Shown here in pieces: positions 1,595 to 56,811 of a stretch of 56,811 bases of DNA; the stretch's first letter is position 1, and every line of letters begins with the position of its first letter. The stretch comes from a virus. Its lineage: Duplodnaviria; Heunggongvirae; Uroviricota; Caudoviricetes. A program made the translations under genes and the position numbers. Where the stretch lies: IMG/VR virus record IMGVR_UViG_2698536317_000003; one strand, given 5' to 3'. Under the pieces are notes generated by a model. It made no database searches. It was given only the letters and a program-made list of their open reading frames with translations, and had not been told where the DNA came from.

Positions 1595-4264
1595 TTATTT
1601 TTCGCTTCCAGTCAACTTACTGACAAGCGCTTCAAGTTTTGCGATACGCTCATCCATTGCGGCAATGTTGGCGCGTAGGCTGGCGTTTTCTTCTTCCAGT
1701 TCGGTTACGCGGTTATCCGTTTCGCGTGCCACCTGGACAAGTAAACCAGTCACTGCGGCGTAGTCAACATTGAGGTAACGCGTTTCCTCGCGTAACTCGT
1801 TGCCGTCAGTGGTCGGGCCTTGTAACGCTTCACCGTAATGAGTAAACGATCCCACAGCTTCCGGCAGCGCCTCCATTACCTCCTGAGCGATAACGCCAGC
1901 GTAAGGCAGGCCGTTTTCCTTGAGGGTGTAGGTGTACCCGTTCATTTTACGGATGGCTTCAGTTGCATCACCTATAACCTGAATGTTGTCTTTTAAGTCC
2001 CTGTCTGATGATTGGGTAACTGAAGTGCATGTGATAGTGCCTTCAACCGCAAGCGAAGCAGAACCATCGGAAAGGTATTTAGCCACAAACAGCGTTTTTA
2101 ATGATGTTTGTGCGCCGTTTGTATCAACAGCTTTAACCTCATAATTCAGCGGGGATGATGAACCGCCCCATGTCATCACCTGTACGTTTGCCGAGGTTGT
2201 TGCGTAAGCAATATGCCTTATGAAACGTGTGTGCGTGCTATCAAAGATATAATGACCACTAAAATGATTGTCTGCTGTCCATACGTTTGCTGTATTAAGC
2301 GTTGCAAGTTGACACCAATCCTTGATCGTTCCATTTTCAATACTTCTTGCATAGAATGATGAGTTGCGCCCGGCGAACTGGGTAGCATAGTTACCGCTAA
2401 AGGTGACATGAAAACCACCCGCAACGCCAATACCCAAAGGACCATTGTCACTGCCTGCGATTGGCTTAAACTTCTCTACAGCATCCGTATGCTGATCGTT
2501 CCAGTTTTGCCCAGCATTTATGGCGTAACCTTTAGATGATCCTATCAGGCCATTTATGGTTAGTTTGGGCATCGTCATTGATATGTCTTCACCAACGGTA
2601 ATTCCGTTAAACAGACCTACGCGAGCACCACTACAAATATAATGGAGTCCTTCAGTTGTTGCAGAATAAAAACCACAACGCCCCATTCTGAAATCAAACA
2701 TAACCTGTAGGTTTTTATATGAACCTAAGGGGTCTGATACACCCCACGGTATGATCGTTTCTGTATCTTTACCACTATTATATACAACCTGGGCGGTTGG
2801 TACTTGTACTGTTACGCCCACAGGCAAGCGCATTTTAATAGGGAATGCCCTTGCTTCAACAAAAACAAAGAGCAGGTTATCTTTGTCTTTGCTGGAACTA
2901 CAGATAGAATGTAAAGCGATTTCTTTGTCGGTATAACGATTGTAAAAACCGTAACCTGCATCCTTTCTGTCACTCCACCCGCCAGTCCTTACATACCCGG
3001 AAAAGGTGTTACAGTTCATTGGGTAATTACCAGCGCCAGACACTGTAACAATATCGATCTGATAGCCAGTCAGGTAAGCGTTGTAATAATTGGCGTTTAT
3101 AATTATAGGGTAATACTTACCATCCTCAACGCCTTCCGGGGCTTCGATTGTTATTATCTCGCCACCGCCTATGGTTGGGATATTGATGTTTCTCCTTGTC
3201 TGTTCAGCGTTTTTAGGTTTGAAAGAGTCGGCTATAAATTCGCCGTTTATGTTGAGGCTTGCGTATTTGCTCACGCCGCCAGATCTTAAATGCATTGTTA
3301 ACTGGTCTGGCGAAGAAAGGTTTGTCTCAGGGTATAGTGCACCATAAATACGCTCCGATCCTGATGTACCAACCAAAACGCTGGAAAGAATACCTCCCGC
3401 AACCCATCCGGTAGTCACGTCAGTAGCTCTTTTTAGCGATACATTAGCAAACTGAGGACTATTTGAAGACCCAACGCCCAGGTTTGTTCTTGCTGTGTCT
3501 GCATCTCCTGCACCAGTGCCGCCAGCAGAAATTGAAAGCGGTAGATATTTACTAGCCTCTGAGTCGAAACAACCCCACGTTCCTGAATCATAGACGGTAA
3601 GGAATTTATTTGCGTTTTGAGAGCATACGCGTGTTTCTCCTGTTCTTTGAATAAGCCTGTTTACTTCATCCTTGCGTGCGTGACGTGTCCAGTTCGGTCC
3701 TGATGTTGCGACCCATGTGTAAGTATAAAGTGATCGCGTAGACCAACCGACAAAGACGCCTGCATACGAAGGCGATGTATCCTGCTGACAGATAAATCCA
3801 CTCAAAAATGATTCACCAGCCGCTACGGAAGGAAAACCCTTAGTCGTTTCCTTTATGCGCAAAAAGCCAACGTAAGAAGACGGATTGCCTGATATATCGA
3901 CGCAATCTCGCGGCTCTGGACCCAAGCCAATATTGCTGCCATCTATTGCGCTTGATATTTCATCTTCCTTTTCCTGATAAAAACGAAGCGTTTCTGCTAC
4001 ATCCTGGGCAAGTCCATCAACTGAGATCGAGTCAGAAAGCAGAATGCTAAATTTTGTCCCGGCGGCGATTGCGGGGTTAGCCGCTGGCGTTACTGACAGT
4101 TCAGTACCGCTCTTGATTTCTGTGATGGTAAAGATCTGAATGGGGTTGCTAATAGCAATAAGCGTGCAACCTACACGAATGAGAGAAAGCGGCGCGGAGA
4201 AGTTTGTGCCCGTGCCTTTAACAGTATTGCCGTTGATGGCAATTGTTCCAGTTGTGTAAATCAT
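1595..4264 (-). CDS. Phage tail fibre protein with C-terminal intramolecular-chaperone (peptidase S74-like) domain and terminal coiled coil
   Basis: 889-aa ORF; C-terminal region contains SSDRDLKDNI-type Ser/Lys motif and heptad-rich tail (ELEEENASLRANIAAMDERIAKLEALV) typical of auto-cleaving tail fibre/endosialidase chaperone domains. Confidence 0.65.
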   Translation of the reverse strand: MIYTTGTIAINGNTVKGTGTNFSAPLSLIRVGCTLIAISNPIQIFTITEIKSGTELSVTPAANPAIAAGTKFSILLSDSISVDGLAQDVAETLRFYQEKEDEISSAIDGSNIGLGPEPRDCVDISGNPSSYVGFLRIKETTKGFPSVAAGESFLSGFICQQDTSPSYAGVFVGWSTRSLYTYTWVATSGPNWTRHARKDEVNRLIQRTGETRVCSQNANKFLTVYDSGTWGCFDSEASKYLPLSISAGGTGAGDADTARTNLGVGSSNSPQFANVSLKRATDVTTGWVAGGILSSVLVGTSGSERIYGALYPETNLSSPDQLTMHLRSGGVSKYASLNINGEFIADSFKPKNAEQTRRNINIPTIGGGEIITIEAPEGVEDGKYYPIIINANYYNAYLTGYQIDIVTVSGAGNYPMNCNTFSGYVRTGGWSDRKDAGYGFYNRYTDKEIALHSICSSSKDKDNLLFVFVEARAFPIKMRLPVGVTVQVPTAQVVYNSGKDTETIIPWGVSDPLGSYKNLQVMFDFRMGRCGFYSATTEGLHYICSGARVGLFNGITVGEDISMTMPKLTINGLIGSSKGYAINAGQNWNDQHTDAVEKFKPIAGSDNGPLGIGVAGGFHVTFSGNYATQFAGRNSSFYARSIENGTIKDWCQLATLNTANVWTADNHFSGHYIFDSTHTRFIRHIAYATTSANVQVMTWGGSSSPLNYEVKAVDTNGAQTSLKTLFVAKYLSDGSASLAVEGTITCTSVTQSSDRDLKDNIQVIGDATEAIRKMNGYTYTLKENGLPYAGVIAQEVMEALPEAVGSFTHYGEALQGPTTDGNELREETRYLNVDYAAVTGLLVQVARETDNRVTELEEENASLRANIAAMDERIAKLEALVSKLTGSEK

Positions 4265-4423
4265 CGCAATGACTCCATTATGTTAATTAACGGAATAATT
4301 CTACCATTTTGTGATCTTTGTTGCATTTTCTGCTTACACAAAATGTATTTGTTGATTTATGTCAATGTTGCGTAAATGCGGTTTATGGATACTACAAACA
4401 ACGAAACAACGGAGGGTAAGACA

Positions 4424-4663
4424 ATGAAAGGCTTTAAAAATATAGCTATCGCTGCAATGGTTGCTGGTCTGGTTGGTTGTGCTGATATGCCGAAACGTGA
4501 ATGCACGGCAACTTACCAAACTGGCGGTAATGAGTATGCGGTTGCAGTCTTCGGTGTCGCGGATGTTGGCGGTCATAAAATGGTTAAGGCCGGGTATCCG
4601 TTTAACTTCCAATGGGTAAGCGTTGACAACTTCAATAAAACGGATTGCCCGGAACTAAATTAA
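4424..4663 (+). CDS. Small lipoprotein (signal peptide plus lipobox LVGC), opposite strand to tail genes; candidate Cor/Llp-like superinfection-exclusion protein
   Basis: GGAGGG RBS 8 nt before ATG at 4424; MKGFKNIAIAAMVAGLVGC signal/lipobox. Confidence 0.55.
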   Translation: MKGFKNIAIAAMVAGLVGCADMPKRECTATYQTGGNEYAVAVFGVADVGGHKMVKAGYPFNFQWVSVDNFNKTDCPELN

Positions 4664-5292
4664 TCATAGGCATCGGTTTTGATGGCGGTTATGGCGTTAC
4701 CGTGGTTTATATAGCCAGTAGGATTATATACGCCACCAGCCGTAACGCCATAGATTCTTGTTTTGCTGCCGTTATAGTATGCGGCAGCATAAATAGACGC
4801 TGAACCTTGCCCAACAACCGCGCCCAACAATTGCGGGCAAATTGCGTATGATCCTGAAAGTGTCTGATCTATATTTATACCCCCACTATTACCTGGTGAA
4901 CCGACTGTAACAATGTCCGTTAATATTCTTGATTCATTAGTTAGCACCAGTTCCCCCGAAGCGTTCCAGATAGCCATGCCCCACTTAGGGAGCGAAGGTG
5001 GGAAAATAGAAAACACATATACAGTAGCAGTATAGGTATTCTTAGTGTCCCTACCAAAAGCGCAAAGTATCTGCCCAGAGTTGGCCCTGCTAACGCTTGC
5101 TGTGACACCGCCTATACTTGTTTTTACGAATACCATTACAGGCTTGTTTGTTGGGACTGCAATGTATCTTGATGTGTTTTGCGTTGGTGGGCAAGAAATA
5201 TCTTGCCTTGTGTATAGACATATGGGCGTCGCTTCCGGTGTAACGAAAATATTCCCGTTACTTAATCTTAAATAAGCTCCGAATGTTGCCAT
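4660..5292 (-). CDS. Hypothetical tail-associated protein (MATFG paralogue, 210 aa)
   Basis: ORF between J and tail fibre; shares N-terminal MATFG motif with upstream neighbour. Confidence 0.4.
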   Translation of the reverse strand: MATFGAYLRLSNGNIFVTPEATPICLYTRQDISCPPTQNTSRYIAVPTNKPVMVFVKTSIGGVTASVSRANSGQILCAFGRDTKNTYTATVYVFSIFPPSLPKWGMAIWNASGELVLTNESRILTDIVTVGSPGNSGGINIDQTLSGSYAICPQLLGAVVGQGSASIYAAAYYNGSKTRIYGVTAGGVYNPTGYINHGNAITAIKTDAYD

Positions 5293-5603
5293 TAAGCCGC
5301 CTCCGCAAATATAACAATTTCACACTGTGATGCGGGCCATATATTGGCTCCTACTGTATTACCTGCCGATGAAATTGATACGGTTCCGCCAGAAATTGTA
5401 ATCCTTCTACGCGTCGTTGATAACGTACCATGATCAAGCGTCATGCCGTATGATAATTTGCATCCGGTAGGAACGGTAAAGCTATATGTGCCTGATACTT
5501 GTCCTGAGGATAGCGAAATATAACCAACAACTACTGAAGGTTTGATTCCGTAGTTATTTGGATTTCCGTTGGCATCCCAGGTGGCTATGCCGAAAGTAGC
5601 CAT
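5292..5603 (-). CDS. Hypothetical tail-associated protein (MATFG paralogue, 103 aa)
   Basis: ORF immediately downstream of J; N-terminus MATFGIATWDANGN. Confidence 0.4.
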   Translation of the reverse strand: MATFGIATWDANGNPNNYGIKPSVVVGYISLSSGQVSGTYSFTVPTGCKLSYGMTLDHGTLSTTRRRITISGGTVSISSAGNTVGANIWPASQCEIVIFAEAA

Positions 5604-5654
5604 AATTGCACCTCCTTAATAAAACTGAGGCCGAACAAATTCGGCCCCTTAATT

Positions 5655-8600
5655 TTACCATGATCCGGTAATTCGTCCAATTTGGACGCGCAACCTACCG
5701 TTTCCATCCCTAACGGAAATGGTTGTATTTGTTAGTTTCATCGCGCCCTCACCACTTACAGAACCGTAGTTTTCAAATGTGCCTGATTTATCCAGCTTCC
5801 AGCCTGTGCTATTGGAAACATAGTTGTTTGATTGAATGTATGAACCAATTTTTGCATTAGTGATTGACGCGTCTTTAATAAACGCCTCGCGCACATACAT
5901 TGCACCGTTAGACACATAGAAAGGCGTTGTATATGTGCCGTTTGCTGCGGTCATCAATACGAAGCGGTCAACAAGGAAGATACACTGCGATTGAACGTTA
6001 GTACCGTTTCCAGTCAGCCCAAGCGACATACCTGTTGCATACTTCATGCCGTTGTTGTCGGTTGCCAGCTTGATGGAATACGTCGCATCGACATTACCTT
6101 TGAAGTCGGTTAACGCTTTTGACGTCGTTTCTATCGCTGTTGTGTTCCCGTTAACGGTCACTGTTAGCTGATCGATTTTGCTTGATAATGCCTCGTCAGC
6201 CGTTGCCATAGACTGTGACCATTCTGTAATACTTGAGTTTACGGAATCGAAAGACGCTGAGATCTGGACGAATTTTTCAGCGCTTGATGCTTCATGCGTA
6301 GAAAGCGCCGTTGATACCTCAGACACCTTCGAGTTAATCGTACTGGTAAGCGATGAGTTAAGGCTACTTATCGCGTCAGTGCGTGCCTTCGTTTCGTCTG
6401 CAATTGCCTTGTCAATACGGGTCACGTTGCTTGTAACTTTGCCATCAAGGGTTGAAATTGACGCATTCACGCCACTGATGGCTTGTGCTCTGGCGCTGGC
6501 CTCATCAGCAATCGCCTGGTCCAGTCTGCTAACTTCGGATTCAGTGTTGCTTTCGAGGGTGTTAATGCTCGCATTCACTCCACTGATAGCTTCGGTTCTT
6601 GCGCTGGTTTCGTTGGCAATAGCCTGATCCAAACGTTTAACGCTGGCGTCGGTTTTCTTGTCGAGCGCTGAAATGCTTGCGTTAACGTCGCTCACTGCCT
6701 GGCTGCGTGCGCTGGTTTCGTCGGCGATGGCCTGATCAAGGCGGGAAACACTCGCTTCGGTTTTCTTATCAAGATCCGTGATCGATGCTTTTACCACGCT
6801 AACCGCTTCCGCTGTAGCCTTTTTCTCTTCAGCGATAACATTGTCAATACGGTCAATTTGCGCGTTGGTTTCTTTGCGTCCTTTCTTGTATTGGGCAGTA
6901 AGAGTAACACGCGTGTTGGTTTGAGCGATTGAGTTGTTAATCAGAGCAATCGAGGCGTTTTGCAGGCTTGCTTTGGTCTGGCTTATTTCGTCGCTGTTCT
7001 TGTCAACGTTGTTTTCAACCTTACCCAGTTCGGCGCTGATTCCAGATATAGCCTGCGCACGGGCGCTTGACTCGTCAGCAATAGCCTGGTCCAAGCGTTT
7101 GACGCTGGCGTTTGTGTTACTTTCGAGCGTTGTTAAATCAGCTTTGACCTCTGTTATTGCGTCGCTTCTTGCCTGAGTTTCGTCAGATATTGCCTTATCG
7201 AGTCTGCTCACGCTGGCGTCGGTTTTGCTTTCAAGATTGCTTATTGAGGCATTAACGCCGCTGATTGCCTGCGCACGGGCGCTTGATTCGTCGGCAATTG
7301 CTTGATCAAGACGGTTCACGCTGGCGTCAGTTTTCTTGTCAAGATCAGCGATCGATGCGTTCACGTTATTAATTGCTTCTGCGCGGGCGCTTGATTCGTC
7401 TGCCACTGCGCGTTCCACGCTGGAGATCTGACCCTTAAGGTTGGAATCCATCGTGTTCATTTCTGCCGTGATGGTTTTCAGCGATTCAGCCGTGGCCCGC
7501 TTCTCTTCGGCAATAACGTTGTCGATGCTGTCAATCTGCGCGTTTGTTTCTGATTGCCATTTCTTGTACTGTGCAGTGAGCGTAACCCGCGTGTTGGTCT
7601 GCGCGAGAGAGTTATTAATCAGCGCCAAAGATGCGTTTTGCAGGCTTGCTTTTGCTTGCGCCAGTTCGCTGTCGATTCTTTCGCTGGATACCTCTAGCGA
7701 GTCAATCCTTACCTCATGTTGCCCAATACCATCGGTGTTTTCACCAACCTTTTTATAAAGATCTTCCGTCTCTTTTTTCAGCGTGTCAGTGTCAGCTTTT
7801 ATTTCACCTGTTTCTGTGATTAAGCTGTCAGTGTCAGTCCTCAATTCGTCAGTGATGTTTGTCAGGTTGTCAGTTGCAGTTTTTAGGTTGTCAGTAGCGT
7901 TTTTAAGGTCATTTGTGGCGCTTTCGATAAGGTCGGCACGGTCGCCAAGATCTTTAATGTCGCCAATCATGTCCTTGAACTGTTCTGACTCCATGACATC
8001 CTTCATCACGTAGTCGCTGATTTCGTCGAAGTTTTCAGTCGGTTTTCCTGATGCCTCAACGAAGTCTGACACACCGAAAGCGTTACGCGTGCGCACATAA
8101 ACGTAATATTTATGGCCCGTGTTCATGCCGCCAAAAGTCCATTGGTAGCCTCGCCCGGTGAATTGCGCCAAAGTTGTTACTTTTGACGGGTCAGTGATCT
8201 GATTTTCACCTGAGTAGTAAAACTCATATGCTGTATCAGTTGTCAGGGTTGTTTTGCTGATCGGATACACTGTTGCCTGGAAAACGCCAGGAACCCAATT
8301 AACACCAATCGGGGCGGCTGGCGCACCAATGACCAGATCCACAATACTTTCCGCACCCTTCATGCCAGTGTCATTACGCCCGCGAATACCAAGCGTGTAG
8401 CTGCCAGCGTCGAGGCCATAAAAATCATAGCGGTAGTTCGTGGTTTCATAAGTTGCCACTACACGCCCATCGGCGTTATATACGCGAATTTCAAAGGTCA
8501 GGCGATGCGTTGTTGTCTGTGTTTCCCACGTTGCGCGACATTGAACAGTTTCAGAACCAACATTTAACACCTTCAGGTTTTCGATGTTCGGCACGCGGAA

Positions 8601-10439
8601 GTGATTAAGCGTGTCGTTGTTTACCTCAAAGATTGCGCCTTCATCGACTACAGCCTGTTTGTGAGGATCGTGCTGTGCAGCCTCAATGGTGTACACGCTG
8701 TTGTTTTCGGTTTCCGCTACGCTGGTAATTCGACACAGAACGGGTTTTGCAGATTCAGTCGATACGGCAAATACGGTTCCGTTACGAATCCATGCGGGCG
8801 CTGCCGCAAGGGTAATATTGTTTCCGTTAACTCCAGTGATCTGATGTTTTTTAAACTTGCCGTCGCTGTCCAGTAAGCTGATAGTGTCACCAGTCGCCAC
8901 CAGGTCAGAATCAACCTTGTCTACAGTTATCACCTTCCCGTTATTCGCCACGACGCGACCGCCTAAACGAGCGCCAGCGCGGTTATTGTCGAGTATCTCG
9001 ATAATATCCCCTGGCGTAAAGTGAATCGCGTCACGCGCCATTTTAAACGTGAATTTTGACGGCTCGCGTTTTGCTGTTTCTATCAGCCACTTGCCCGCGC
9101 GGTATGCTTGCCCGCGTGATGTGCACCCGAACGCCTCTAACGTGGTTTCGTTGTAACCATCACGGGCGATCAGTTCATCGTCTGCTACATACTCTTTTGA
9201 TTGCTCCCATCCGTTTTCCGGGTCAGTCCATGATACGATCACGGCGTTGTAGCATTCTGCGCGGGCGATACTTGAACGAGTAAACGCGCCATCAACGACA
9301 TTTGCATTTGTAATGGTGGCGATCGGGTCTAGTGGTGCATCAATCATCACGGTAAGGCGTTGCCCGTCCCATAACGCGATACCCCTGAACATCCCGGCGA
9401 TATTGTCCAGTAAGTCGCGGGCGCTCATTTGCTCTGTGATGTAAGCGTTAAGCGTCATGCGAGGCTCAAGGCCGCCGTAGCCATCATCAACCAACTGGTC
9501 GCAGTATTGAGAAAGCGTATATAATGCGCCGTCGTCAACGTCAATATAACCAGCGTGACGAGCAAGGCCGAAACGCTCGTTTTTAACCAGATAGCGGAAG
9601 ATCCATGCTGGGTTATTGGTGTACGCCTGTTTGAAGCCGCCAAGCCACAAACCGGAATAAGTGCGCTTTTCCGGGTCGTAGTTATCAGGAATATCAACAA
9701 TCAGCCCGCGAAGGTGATAGGTGCGGGTAGGCGTGTCAGCGTACTGATCATGGTCAATTACCGCGCCAGCTACAGCGGTGTGAGGATAAGACAAATTATC
9801 GTCGATTATTTCGCTGTAGCTACTCCATCGCGTATCATTCTGCAACAGATCGCTTGTGCTATCAGCGGTTACACGGCGAACGCGAATATCAAACGGTTTT
9901 TCATCTGGTGCATTGATAATATGCGCTTCAAGATATTCTCCGCTGATCTTACCTGGGCCTATAGTAACGTCTTTAACAAGCGTCCACGTAGAAGAAGACG
10001 AAGGCTTCACGTCAATCATCATCATAACCGATGTGTTATGTTGATTGCTTTGCTCGTCAGATTGTACAAGTGAATCGACGCCGATATTCAGGCGAACGCG
10101 GTTTACGTTAGGATCGGAAACGGTCCTGATTATTGGTGTATCGTGTTTAACCTGTGCGTTAACAATAACGGTTGATTCAATGGCGTTAAAACCGTTAATC
10201 GGTGATTGATCTATCGTACCATTGCGCCACGCTACGCTAATACCGGGGATGCTGGTATTGCCGTTCGCGTCAGTTACAGGGGTGTCATTAAGCATTACGC
10301 TGTTTAATGGCGCATTGGTATTAACAGGACCATAAATCGGACCTTCTGAAATAATGTCGAGTACACGATAAAACTGTTTGTGATATAGATTATCGTTAAT
10401 TAAAGTTGGTGTTTTTGCTTTGCCGCCGCCACTACTCAT
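5655..10439 (-). CDS. J: Host specificity / central tail fibre protein, lambda J-like, with long internal coiled-coil repeat region
   Basis: 1594-aa ORF downstream of I/K/L homologues; N-terminal region J-like; central tandem peptide repeats (RLDQAIADESSARAQAISGVNASI...). Confidence 0.85.
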   Translation of the reverse strand: MSSGGGKAKTPTLINDNLYHKQFYRVLDIISEGPIYGPVNTNAPLNSVMLNDTPVTDANGNTSIPGISVAWRNGTIDQSPINGFNAIESTVIVNAQVKHDTPIIRTVSDPNVNRVRLNIGVDSLVQSDEQSNQHNTSVMMMIDVKPSSSSTWTLVKDVTIGPGKISGEYLEAHIINAPDEKPFDIRVRRVTADSTSDLLQNDTRWSSYSEIIDDNLSYPHTAVAGAVIDHDQYADTPTRTYHLRGLIVDIPDNYDPEKRTYSGLWLGGFKQAYTNNPAWIFRYLVKNERFGLARHAGYIDVDDGALYTLSQYCDQLVDDGYGGLEPRMTLNAYITEQMSARDLLDNIAGMFRGIALWDGQRLTVMIDAPLDPIATITNANVVDGAFTRSSIARAECYNAVIVSWTDPENGWEQSKEYVADDELIARDGYNETTLEAFGCTSRGQAYRAGKWLIETAKREPSKFTFKMARDAIHFTPGDIIEILDNNRAGARLGGRVVANNGKVITVDKVDSDLVATGDTISLLDSDGKFKKHQITGVNGNNITLAAAPAWIRNGTVFAVSTESAKPVLCRITSVAETENNSVYTIEAAQHDPHKQAVVDEGAIFEVNNDTLNHFRVPNIENLKVLNVGSETVQCRATWETQTTTHRLTFEIRVYNADGRVVATYETTNYRYDFYGLDAGSYTLGIRGRNDTGMKGAESIVDLVIGAPAAPIGVNWVPGVFQATVYPISKTTLTTDTAYEFYYSGENQITDPSKVTTLAQFTGRGYQWTFGGMNTGHKYYVYVRTRNAFGVSDFVEASGKPTENFDEISDYVMKDVMESEQFKDMIGDIKDLGDRADLIESATNDLKNATDNLKTATDNLTNITDELRTDTDSLITETGEIKADTDTLKKETEDLYKKVGENTDGIGQHEVRIDSLEVSSERIDSELAQAKASLQNASLALINNSLAQTNTRVTLTAQYKKWQSETNAQIDSIDNVIAEEKRATAESLKTITAEMNTMDSNLKGQISSVERAVADESSARAEAINNVNASIADLDKKTDASVNRLDQAIADESSARAQAISGVNASISNLESKTDASVSRLDKAISDETQARSDAITEVKADLTTLESNTNASVKRLDQAIADESSARAQAISGISAELGKVENNVDKNSDEISQTKASLQNASIALINNSIAQTNTRVTLTAQYKKGRKETNAQIDRIDNVIAEEKKATAEAVSVVKASITDLDKKTEASVSRLDQAIADETSARSQAVSDVNASISALDKKTDASVKRLDQAIANETSARTEAISGVNASINTLESNTESEVSRLDQAIADEASARAQAISGVNASISTLDGKVTSNVTRIDKAIADETKARTDAISSLNSSLTSTINSKVSEVSTALSTHEASSAEKFVQISASFDSVNSSITEWSQSMATADEALSSKIDQLTVTVNGNTTAIETTSKALTDFKGNVDATYSIKLATDNNGMKYATGMSLGLTGNGTNVQSQCIFLVDRFVLMTAANGTYTTPFYVSNGAMYVREAFIKDASITNAKIGSYIQSNNYVSNSTGWKLDKSGTFENYGSVSGEGAMKLTNTTISVRDGNGRLRVQIGRITGSW
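6290..7700. repeat. Tandem in-frame coding repeats inside J-like gene (short units nested in a longer duplication)
   Basis: Repeated DNA blocks such as gcgcttgattcgtcggcaattgc...; protein blocks ASLQNAS(L/I)ALINNS(L/I)AQTNTRVTLTAQYKK occur twice. Confidence 0.7.
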
Positions 10440-55436: not shown

Positions 55437-55654
55437 TGGATAAGATCGGGACAATACTTATTAACCGTGAGCAAGTGCAAAAAATGTTAGGCGGGCTTAG
55501 CAAGTCCGCCTTTTTTAAGCTCGTTAAAAAATGGAAAGAAGCGGGAACTCCTTTCCCTGAACCTGTAAAGGGGATGCCAGCATTAAAGCGCGGGGGATCT
55601 CTTTACCGTTATCAGGACGTTATTTCATTTTGTAAATCGATGGGCTTCATGTAG
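55436..55654 (+). CDS. Excisionase-like / small DNA-binding protein
   Basis: 72-aa ORF adjacent to and converging on the integrase gene. Confidence 0.45.
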   Translation: MDKIGTILINREQVQKMLGGLSKSAFFKLVKKWKEAGTPFPEPVKGMPALKRGGSLYRYQDVISFCKSMGFM

Positions 55655-56811
55655 TAATCAGCCAGTTTATTCATCGCCTCGATTTGTTCCCTCACGTAAT
55701 CATATTGATCATAGATAGCCATCATCCCCGCCAGTTTATGACCCAAAACCTTTTCGGCTACGTGCGGCGCAACGCCAAGCGCTGAAAGGTTTGTCCTTAC
55801 AGTGCGGCGTAGATCGTGACACGACCACGGCTCGCCGCCCATCCTTAGCATCAAATCCCTTGCGGCTGTTTTCGGCACGCTCCTGTCTACCGCTTCATCC
55901 CTTCCAGAAAGCACGGGAACGAAGATAAAATTAAAGCCGTGCAAATCCATAGCCTCACGCAATAAATCAACGCTAACGGCAGATAAACCGCGTTTAAACT
56001 CATTTCTGTTCTTACTCAATGCACCCGGCACGGTCCACACACAATTATCAAGATCAAAATGCTCGCGTTTTGCGTTTGTTAGCTCGCTTGTTCTGCATCC
56101 GGTGAATATAATCAGCTTCATCAATATCTGATTTAGCCGCGCCATTTTTGAGCTATCTATAATGCTGATCAGATGGTGAATCTCTTGTATTGATAAAACG
56201 CGCTTCCTTTGCGCCGGGTTTTTGCCAACGTCTTTCACGCGTAGCAATGATATGTCGTCACGCTCCACGCGGCGGCGGCGCATGGCATATTTTATAACCG
56301 CCTTCATCCTGTTTAAGACTATCCCGGCCTGAACGGGCGCGCCACCATTAGCTACCTTTCTAAAAATTCCCTCCCACATTATGGCGTCCATATCATCAAC
56401 AATATAGCTACCGCATGGTTTGACAATATGCTTGCTTAACATCGCTTCGACTTGCTTATGGTTGACCATGTTTCTTGCCTGCGGTGATTCCATATATTCC
56501 CTGACAATATCTTCAACGGTCGCCCGTGTCGTAACGCGGGAAAGGTGCATTCTTTTTACGATCGATGGATCTCGCCCTGAGTTTAATATTTCCTTATGTT
56601 CCGCCACCGCCGCGCGGGCTTCTTTGAGCGTTATTTCTCCGTAAGTGCCAATCTTCATCCGTCGCGGCTTGCCGTTGAATCGGTAGCGATACTGGAAAGA
56701 TATAACGCCGTGCGGGCTTATCCTGGCAGACAATCCGCCCGCGTCCGGGACTTCTTCCGGGCCGTCATATGGCTTGCCGTGGATGTTTCGTAATTTGGTA
56801 TCTGTAAGCAT
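55612..56811 (-). CDS. Tyrosine integrase, P4-type
   Basis: 399-aa ORF with arm-binding N-terminus (MLTDTKLRN...ISFQYRYRFNGK) and C-terminal catalytic domain; 5-prime end at window edge. Confidence 0.9.
   Translation of the reverse strand: MLTDTKLRNIHGKPYDGPEEVPDAGGLSARISPHGVISFQYRYRFNGKPRRMKIGTYGEITLKEARAAVAEHKEILNSGRDPSIVKRMHLSRVTTRATVEDIVREYMESPQARNMVNHKQVEAMLSKHIVKPCGSYIVDDMDAIMWEGIFRKVANGGAPVQAGIVLNRMKAVIKYAMRRRRVERDDISLLRVKDVGKNPAQRKRVLSIQEIHHLISIIDSSKMARLNQILMKLIIFTGCRTSELTNAKREHFDLDNCVWTVPGALSKNRNEFKRGLSAVSVDLLREAMDLHGFNFIFVPVLSGRDEAVDRSVPKTAARDLMLRMGGEPWSCHDLRRTVRTNLSALGVAPHVAEKVLGHKLAGMMAIYDQYDYVREQIEAMNKLADYYMKPIDLQNEITS

Follow-up and report, generated by a model that had tools for sequence, protein, structure and literature searches.

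A cor gene for a predicted FhuA-inactivating exclusion lipoprotein in an mEp021-like prophage

In the mEp021-like prophage analysed here, the small plus-strand gene at 4424-4663 is, judging by homology, cor, and it very probably makes an outer-membrane lipoprotein that faces the periplasm and inactivates the ferrichrome transporter FhuA. Positions refer to the window, i.e., the whole stretch of DNA that was analysed (56,811 nucleotides). Proteins of the Cor family serve prophages to close FhuA, their own receptor, to phages that arrive later. FhuA as the target, an allosteric mechanism acting from the periplasm and expression from the prophage are presumed here, the mechanism by analogy with the lipoprotein Llp of phage T5. 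The find is an ordinary one, since the gene is a member of the Cor family that is already catalogued. What is modestly new is the location: on the sequence comparisons, the classic cor cassette of the FhuA type occurs in some mEp021-like phages, at the slot that OmpA- or LamB-matched lipoproteins fill in the characterised members of this group.

Gene coordinates and translation start

An intact open reading frame extends from 4376 to 4663 on the plus strand and gives a 95-aa translation from its longest start (ORF list of the window). It is flanked by two minus-strand tail genes, the side tail-fibre gene (1595-4264) and a gene for a 210-aa protein (4660-5292). The first-pass annotation had described a small lipoprotein gene of these limits, opposite in strand to the adjoining tail-fibre gene. 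The frame and this arrangement are found as described; the start has to be moved downstream, most likely to the ATG at 4424. The features of the gene are as follows.

4424-4663, plus strand: cor, phage exclusion lipoprotein Cor, a 79-aa prolipoprotein with a mature part of 61 aa (NF047972, PHROG 1119, NCBI name, orthologue in Escherichia coli UMNK88)
4376-4423, plus strand: 5' extension of the longest cor frame, probably an untranslated leader (the ATG at 4376 is unconserved in UMNK88; homologues start at MK)
4411-4416, plus strand: Shine-Dalgarno sequence GGAGGG for the ATG at 4424 (taken from the sequence itself; also in UMNK88)
4424-4480, plus strand: type II signal peptide with the lipobox L16-V17-G18-C19 at its end (lipobox regular expression, layout of the n- and h-regions, family alignments)

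The true start of cor is almost certainly the ATG at 4424, 48 nt inside the longest frame, because the GGAGGG lies 8 nt 5' of it, all homologues begin at the equivalent MK residues and in E. coli UMNK88, whose locus is 94.6% identical, PGAP likewise calls a product of 79 aa. Furthermore, the ATG at 4376 is absent as a conserved codon in UMNK88, and the 5' extension straddles a recombination junction at about 4384.

The stop codon of cor overlaps the convergent 210-aa gene by 4 nt (4660-4663, TTAA), and a terminator scan found no terminator between the two genes. Late minus-strand transcription toward the tail-fibre gene must therefore cross cor in antisense. Neither a sigma-70 promoter scan nor a relaxed search for hexamers gave a convincing promoter 5' of cor (4265-4423); that the lysogen expresses cor is for this reason only assumed, after the moron behaviour of HK022-type cor. 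The overlapping stops, the missing terminator and the lack of a consensus promoter would all suit a silent or decaying remnant that accompanies the receptor-binding cassette and stays unexpressed in the lysogen. Such a remnant is extremely unlikely, given an undamaged reading frame, ribosome site and lipobox and the full set of conserved cysteines. The exact 79-aa protein recurs on many independent E. coli contigs, and the gene differs from its UMNK88 orthologue by five synonymous and two non-synonymous codon changes, which argues both against decay and against a chance reading frame.

Directly 5' of cor, a candidate frame for a cysteine-rich hydrophobic peptide of 31 aa, MLINGIILPFCDLCCIFCLHKMYLLIYVNVA, lies at 4280-4375 on the plus strand. 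The DNA at this site is conserved with mEp010 and MagusPhagus, in which small hypothetical proteins are annotated there (mEp010_117, CDS0020).

Lipoprotein features

The signal peptide of Cor is MKGFKNIAIAAMVAGLVG. It consists of the n-region MKGFK, followed by a hydrophobic core and the lipobox LVGC (residues 16-19) with Cys19. Thus the lipoprotein nature proposed in the first-pass annotation is borne out by the type II signal peptide, and the lipobox prediction that it had asked for gave a match to LVGC with a cysteine invariant in the family. The mature protein of 61 aa begins with CAD. Its +2 residue is Ala, not Asp, and under the sorting rule applied to the sequence Cor is therefore expected to be sorted to the outer membrane. 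C27 is, like the lipobox cysteine, invariant across the Cor family alignments, and C75 is nearly so; a disulfide between C27 and C75 (precursor numbering) probably stabilises the mature fold. The AGYPF core, common to most family members, is present as KAGYPFNFQWVS.

Family identity

The gene had been thought not recognisably Cor, a view that the profile searches contradict. The NCBIfam equivalog model NF047972, "phage exclusion lipoprotein Cor", matches with 57.9 bits (curated cutoff, 31 bits) and E=7e-16 over model positions 8-76 of 78, and PHROG 1119, "Cor superinfection exclusion protein", matches at E=2e-23. A tblastn search of 50,697 phage records gave a match in 206 of them, for many of which the annotation reads Cor or superinfection exclusion protein. 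By blastp, the identity of Cor is 63% with PeterMerian, 48% with T1, 40% with N15 gene 24, 38% with HK022 and 35% with phi80. NCBI and UniRef already list the exact 79-aa sequence as "phage exclusion lipoprotein Cor [Escherichia coli]". Four complete RefSeq E. coli genomes have the locus with a cor annotation by PGAP, and the 79-aa orthologue of UMNK88 is likewise annotated cor. The proposal that the lipoprotein is a receptor-blocking superinfection-exclusion factor of the cor/llp kind, which had been drawn from position and lipoprotein nature, is hence confirmed by homology, because the gene is evidently a cor orthologue; its function is predicted from the family.

Neither Pfam nor PADLOC gave a match for the lipoprotein or for its 103-aa and 210-aa neighbours, and for the lipoprotein no family other than Cor was matched in Pfam, NCBIfam, PHROGs or PADLOC. 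A word-indexed protein search returned six near-identical clusters only. An exhaustive phmmer search of protein representatives with the 79-aa sequence returned 28 matches only. Some of these are giant repeat proteins of 2,200-3,800 aa with up to eight matched stretches each, which fall mostly in Cor residues 16-76; in one of the proteins, Pfam recognises Calx-beta and Ig-like repeats. These proteins were set aside as relatives of Cor, the matches being probably compositional noise.

Small phage lipoproteins are known in several roles. The position of cor within the tail gene cluster and the lack of an identifiable promoter for its independent expression could be read as signs of a structural tail-tip component, a Bor-like serum-resistance moron or an Rz1-like spanin subunit. 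A non-exclusion role of this kind is nevertheless very unlikely. The Cor models match specifically and the four collections named above offer no other family; cor lies on the strand opposite to the late tail operon, and holin, endolysin and i-spanin genes are not adjacent to it. In the comparison with Rz1-like o-spanins, cor was found among tail genes and matched no spanin family. Moreover, the lipoproteins that occupy the same slot in mEp021 and mEp010 exclude phages experimentally (PMC11893012). Cor is thus preferably read as an exclusion lipoprotein.

The cor cassette and its neighbours

The four neighbouring genes listed here are located on the minus strand.

4660-5292, minus strand: 210-aa cassette protein, homologue of N15 gp23, phi80 gp23 and T1 orf31 (PHROG 425, E=8e-57)
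5292-5603, minus strand: 103-aa cassette protein, homologue of N15 gp22, phi80 gp22 and T1 orf32 (PHROG 557, E=5e-30)
5655-10439, minus strand: J-like central tail fibre or host-specificity protein, 1594 aa (ORF list, blastn, tblastn of the C-terminus)
1595-4264, minus strand: side tail-fibre gene, 889 aa, with a C-terminal S74 intramolecular chaperone domain (Pfam PF13884, E=3.6e-14; PHROG tail-fibre families)

In the window, the order J, 103-aa gene, 210-aa gene and cor corresponds to the three-gene "cor cassette" after J. The same order (J, a gene for about 100 aa, a gene for about 210-230 aa, cor) is annotated in T1, PeterMerian, HK022, N15 and phi80. In T1 and PeterMerian, cor is inverted as it is in the window; in HK022, N15 and phi80, cor is on the same strand and the side tail-fibre gene comes next, which is also its place in the window. 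The suggestion that a position beside the receptor-binding genes follows the logic of cor agrees with this shared order of J, gp22, gp23, cor and tail fibre. The 210-aa protein is a putative receptor-binding or tail-tip accessory protein. It is 58% identical to that of PeterMerian and 44-47% identical to those of HK022, phi80, N15 and T1; for the 103-aa protein, the values are 60% with PeterMerian and 45-53% with N15, HK022, phi80 and T1.

The J-like protein is unusually long (1594 aa), with numerous imperfect repeats of coiled-coil-like character (RLDQAIADESSARAQAISGVNASI... and variants) in its central region. Repeats that vary in length are noted there in the published J alignment of the mEp021-like phages, called mEpimmI, too.

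The side tail-fibre gene is a mosaic. Its DNA matches the fibres of mEp010, MagusPhagus and UMNK88 only at 3965-4264 and 1595-2032, which are the 5' end (about 300 nt) and the 3' end (about 440 nt) of the gene, and the middle differs. The difference of the middle between two matching ends suggests a separate exchange of the glycan-binding part.

Receptor of the cassette phages

The cor cassette has been described in T1, HK022, N15, ES18 and phi80, all FhuA-dependent (Wietzorrek et al. 2006, as cited in PMC13164509). The full three-gene cassette is present in ten phages of the BASEL collection, and all ten use FhuA (PMC13164509). The BASEL table gives FhuA as the terminal receptor of PeterMerian, JulesPiccard, LeonhardEuler, PaulFeyerabend and GeorgBuechner, these five being every BASEL phage checked among the Cor matches. 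In the BASEL paper, the genes after J are read as dedicated receptor-binding proteins together with their cognate exclusion proteins. All three cassette proteins of the window (Cor, 210 aa and 103 aa) are closest to the versions of FhuA phages, at 63, 58 and 60% identity with PeterMerian and 35-53% with T1, phi80, N15 and HK022.

The target cannot be read from the family alone, because Cor/Llp-like lipoproteins also occur in BtuB-dependent phages. They are found in the BtuB-using Markadamsvirinae and in one Tempevirinae lineage (PMC13164509). Together with the moderate identity to characterised Cor proteins (35-48%) and with the change of the slot lipoprotein according to the receptor in the mEpimmI phages (type A with OmpA, type C with LamB), this could point to a Cor-family exclusion lipoprotein aimed at a receptor other than FhuA, e.g., BtuB, to match the 103-aa and 210-aa proteins. 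Such a target is improbable: the complete three-gene cassette is so far known only with FhuA use (PMC13164509), and the nearest relatives of all three proteins belong to phages with an experimentally determined FhuA receptor. The BtuB-type cassette, represented by FritzSarasin, was considered and rejected, its gene order being different and its lipoprotein alike in the signal peptide only. FhuA is accordingly kept as the presumable receptor and target of the cassette.

Prophage backbone and exchange of the module

The window starts exactly at the start codon of abgT, the frame of which (1-1446, 481 aa) has its 3' end replaced; the prophage has therefore inserted into the 3' end of this gene. 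A single complete prophage, with genes for tail, tape measure, capsid, terminase, repressor and integrase, makes up the remainder of the window and finishes with the integrase gene (55612-56811). The prophage is 83-89% identical to the mEpimmI phages over J and the adjacent tail genes. One integrase type of this group integrates at the 3' end of abgT (PMC11893012), and the insertion found here matches the prophages with integrase type II.

The mEpimmI phages have four sequence types of lipoprotein within the structural gene cluster (PMC11893012). The type A lipoprotein of mEp021 excludes the OmpA-dependent mEp021 and mEp515, and the type C lipoprotein of mEp010 excludes the LamB-dependent mEp010, mEp044 and mEp554 as well as lambda (PMC11893012). 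The exclusion tests in that paper covered types A and C of the four, and the word Cor is present there in the reference list only. The prophages of UMNK88 and Ecol_244 belong to the genome set of PMC11893012; both carry the Cor type found in the window.

The boundaries of the exchanged segment were taken from blastn.

4385-5844, strand not assigned: exchangeable FhuA-type host-recognition and exclusion cassette, comprising cor, the 210-aa gene, the 103-aa gene and the C-terminal tip of J (blastn)

Homology to mEp010 and MagusPhagus covers 3965-4384 and restarts at 5845 or 5863, so that the swapped stretch between the flanks is 1.46 kb long and includes the last 63 or so codons of J (5655-5844). 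Among the loci compared by blastn, the FhuA-type locus of PeterMerian is the sole detectable relative of the swapped stretch, with 66-67% identity over 4465-5867. Since the backbone homology stops at 4384 and resumes at 5845/5863 with PeterMerian-like sequence between, the cassette and the J tip have, by all indications of the alignments, been exchanged as a unit into the mEp021-like backbone. Bounded by conserved DNA, the slot is a fixed site at which receptor and exclusion modules recombine.

In other members of the group, the same slot is occupied by the type A lipoprotein and a 311-aa protein (mEp021) or by the type C lipoprotein and a longer C-terminus of J (mEp010, MagusPhagus). The type A and type C lipoproteins were also considered as divergent Cor proteins; this was rejected, as the signal peptides alone align.

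Structure and mechanism

Mature Cor was modelled with AlphaFold2 from an alignment of 16 sequences. The model is all-beta, with a mean pLDDT of 84.6. In the Foldseek comparison with the PDB, the match of best coverage both ways is T5 Llp as seen in its crystal structure with FhuA (8a60_B; TM 0.59/0.58, rmsd 3.6 A over 59 columns, 27% identity); its E value (0.05) falls short of significance, and small barrels of the Tudor type rank next to it. In BFVD, the model is matched best by a superinfection exclusion protein of a Dhillonvirus (TM 0.90, E=8e-8), and lipoproteins of T5-like phages rank second and fourth. A profile of 17 Cor sequences searched against the PDB sequences also places Llp (8a60_B) on top, with E=9e-4 and 22.5 bits, to which the signal peptide contributes a part. 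With Cor as a single sequence, phmmer found nothing among the PDB sequences.

According to published work, Llp attaches to FhuA at the periplasmic face and causes an allosteric refolding of the extracellular loops 7 and 8. Cor inactivates the functions of FhuA and is predicted to act like Llp (PMC9586334; preprint 10.64898/2026.03.26.714494). The two proteins are predicted to form one structural family, the mechanism of Cor itself being not yet elucidated (preprint 10.64898/2026.03.26.714494). An AlphaFold3 model places T1-type Cor on the periplasmic side of FhuA (PMC13164509). Interactions of Cor with other outer-membrane proteins have been reported as well (Arguijo-Hernandez 2018, as cited in PMC9311878).

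The events in the lysogen can be pictured as follows. Translation of cor from the ATG at 4424 would give the 79-aa prolipoprotein, and its mature part of 61 aa would fold into a small beta-barrel with a probable C27-C75 disulfide. Mature Cor would then most likely bind FhuA, the ferrichrome transporter, on its periplasmic side. On the model of T5 Llp, the plug and the extracellular loops of FhuA would be locked and FhuA-dependent phages could neither adsorb nor inject. The phages excluded would include those of the prophage's own kind, T1, phi80 and T5, and the inactivation of FhuA would incidentally abolish ferrichrome uptake. As the last member of a module of three genes after J (the 103-aa gene, the 210-aa gene and cor), cor travels with the J tip. 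This module has recombined into the mEp021-like prophage in abgT, at the slot that its relatives fill with LamB- or OmpA-matched lipoproteins.

Significance

Beyond the correct annotation, the find of cor matters little. The receptors determined in the mEpimmI group are OmpA and LamB only (PMC11893012). The presence of cor predicts FhuA as the receptor of the prophage in the window, which is relevant to host-range prediction for phage therapy. The Cor type went unrecognised in the paper by which the group was defined (PMC11893012). One of the lipoprotein types outside A and C in this founding paper is Cor.

It is conceivable, if doubtful, that the Cor variant and its two partners have a specificity so far undescribed, for a divergent FhuA allele or another TonB-dependent transporter, and that the mEp021-like phages represent a natural, near-isogenic series with recognition and exclusion modules of the OmpA, LamB and FhuA types exchanged at a single fixed slot. 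If so, the series would allow for a direct comparison of how small lipoproteins block widely differing outer-membrane proteins.

Comparison with known systems

The Cor proteins of phi80, N15, HK022/mEp167 and T1 belong to the same curated HMM family as the protein of the window and have a precursor of 75-79 aa, a lipobox and a conserved pair of cysteines. The AGYPF core is as in most members of the characterised Cor family. In phi80, N15, HK022 and T1, cor follows J and the gp22/gp23 homologues, as it does in the window. Unlike these genes, the cor of the window sits in a non-lambdoid, mEp021-like prophage backbone. Its product is only 35-48% identical to the characterised Cor of phi80, N15, HK022-type phages and T1, being nearer (about 60-63%) to the Cor of Drexlerviridae and Dhillonvirus phages.

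As is predicted for Cor, T5 Llp is a small lipoprotein of the outer membrane; its gene, too, adjoins the receptor-binding genes. The Cor profile and Llp align at a cysteine that closely follows the lipobox, and an intramolecular disulfide is common to Cor and Llp (PMC9586334). The FhuA target and the periplasmic allosteric mechanism are presumably also the same. Llp is paired with a single receptor-binding protein, pb5, whereas Cor of the window is paired with gp22/gp23-type proteins and the J tip. Furthermore, Llp is expressed early by a virulent phage, and cor of the window resides in a prophage.

The lipoproteins gp81 of mEp021 (type A) and gp116 of mEp010 (type C) come from the same phage group and share with Cor of the window the slot between J and the tail fibre, the flanking DNA and the size. 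Their similarity to Cor is confined to the signal peptide (E=0.009 and E=3.3, respectively), and the mature parts are not alignable. In the mEpimmI phages, the lipoprotein is paired with a longer C-terminus of J (LamB phages) or with another protein (OmpA phages) rather than with a gp22/gp23 pair. Rtp45 of phage Rtp, directed at LptD (PDB 9RPS), differs from Cor in family and target, its match to the Cor profile being marginal and at the level of the signal peptide (E=1.4). Like Cor of the window, it is an exclusion lipoprotein from the receptor-binding locus downstream of J, in a small siphophage.
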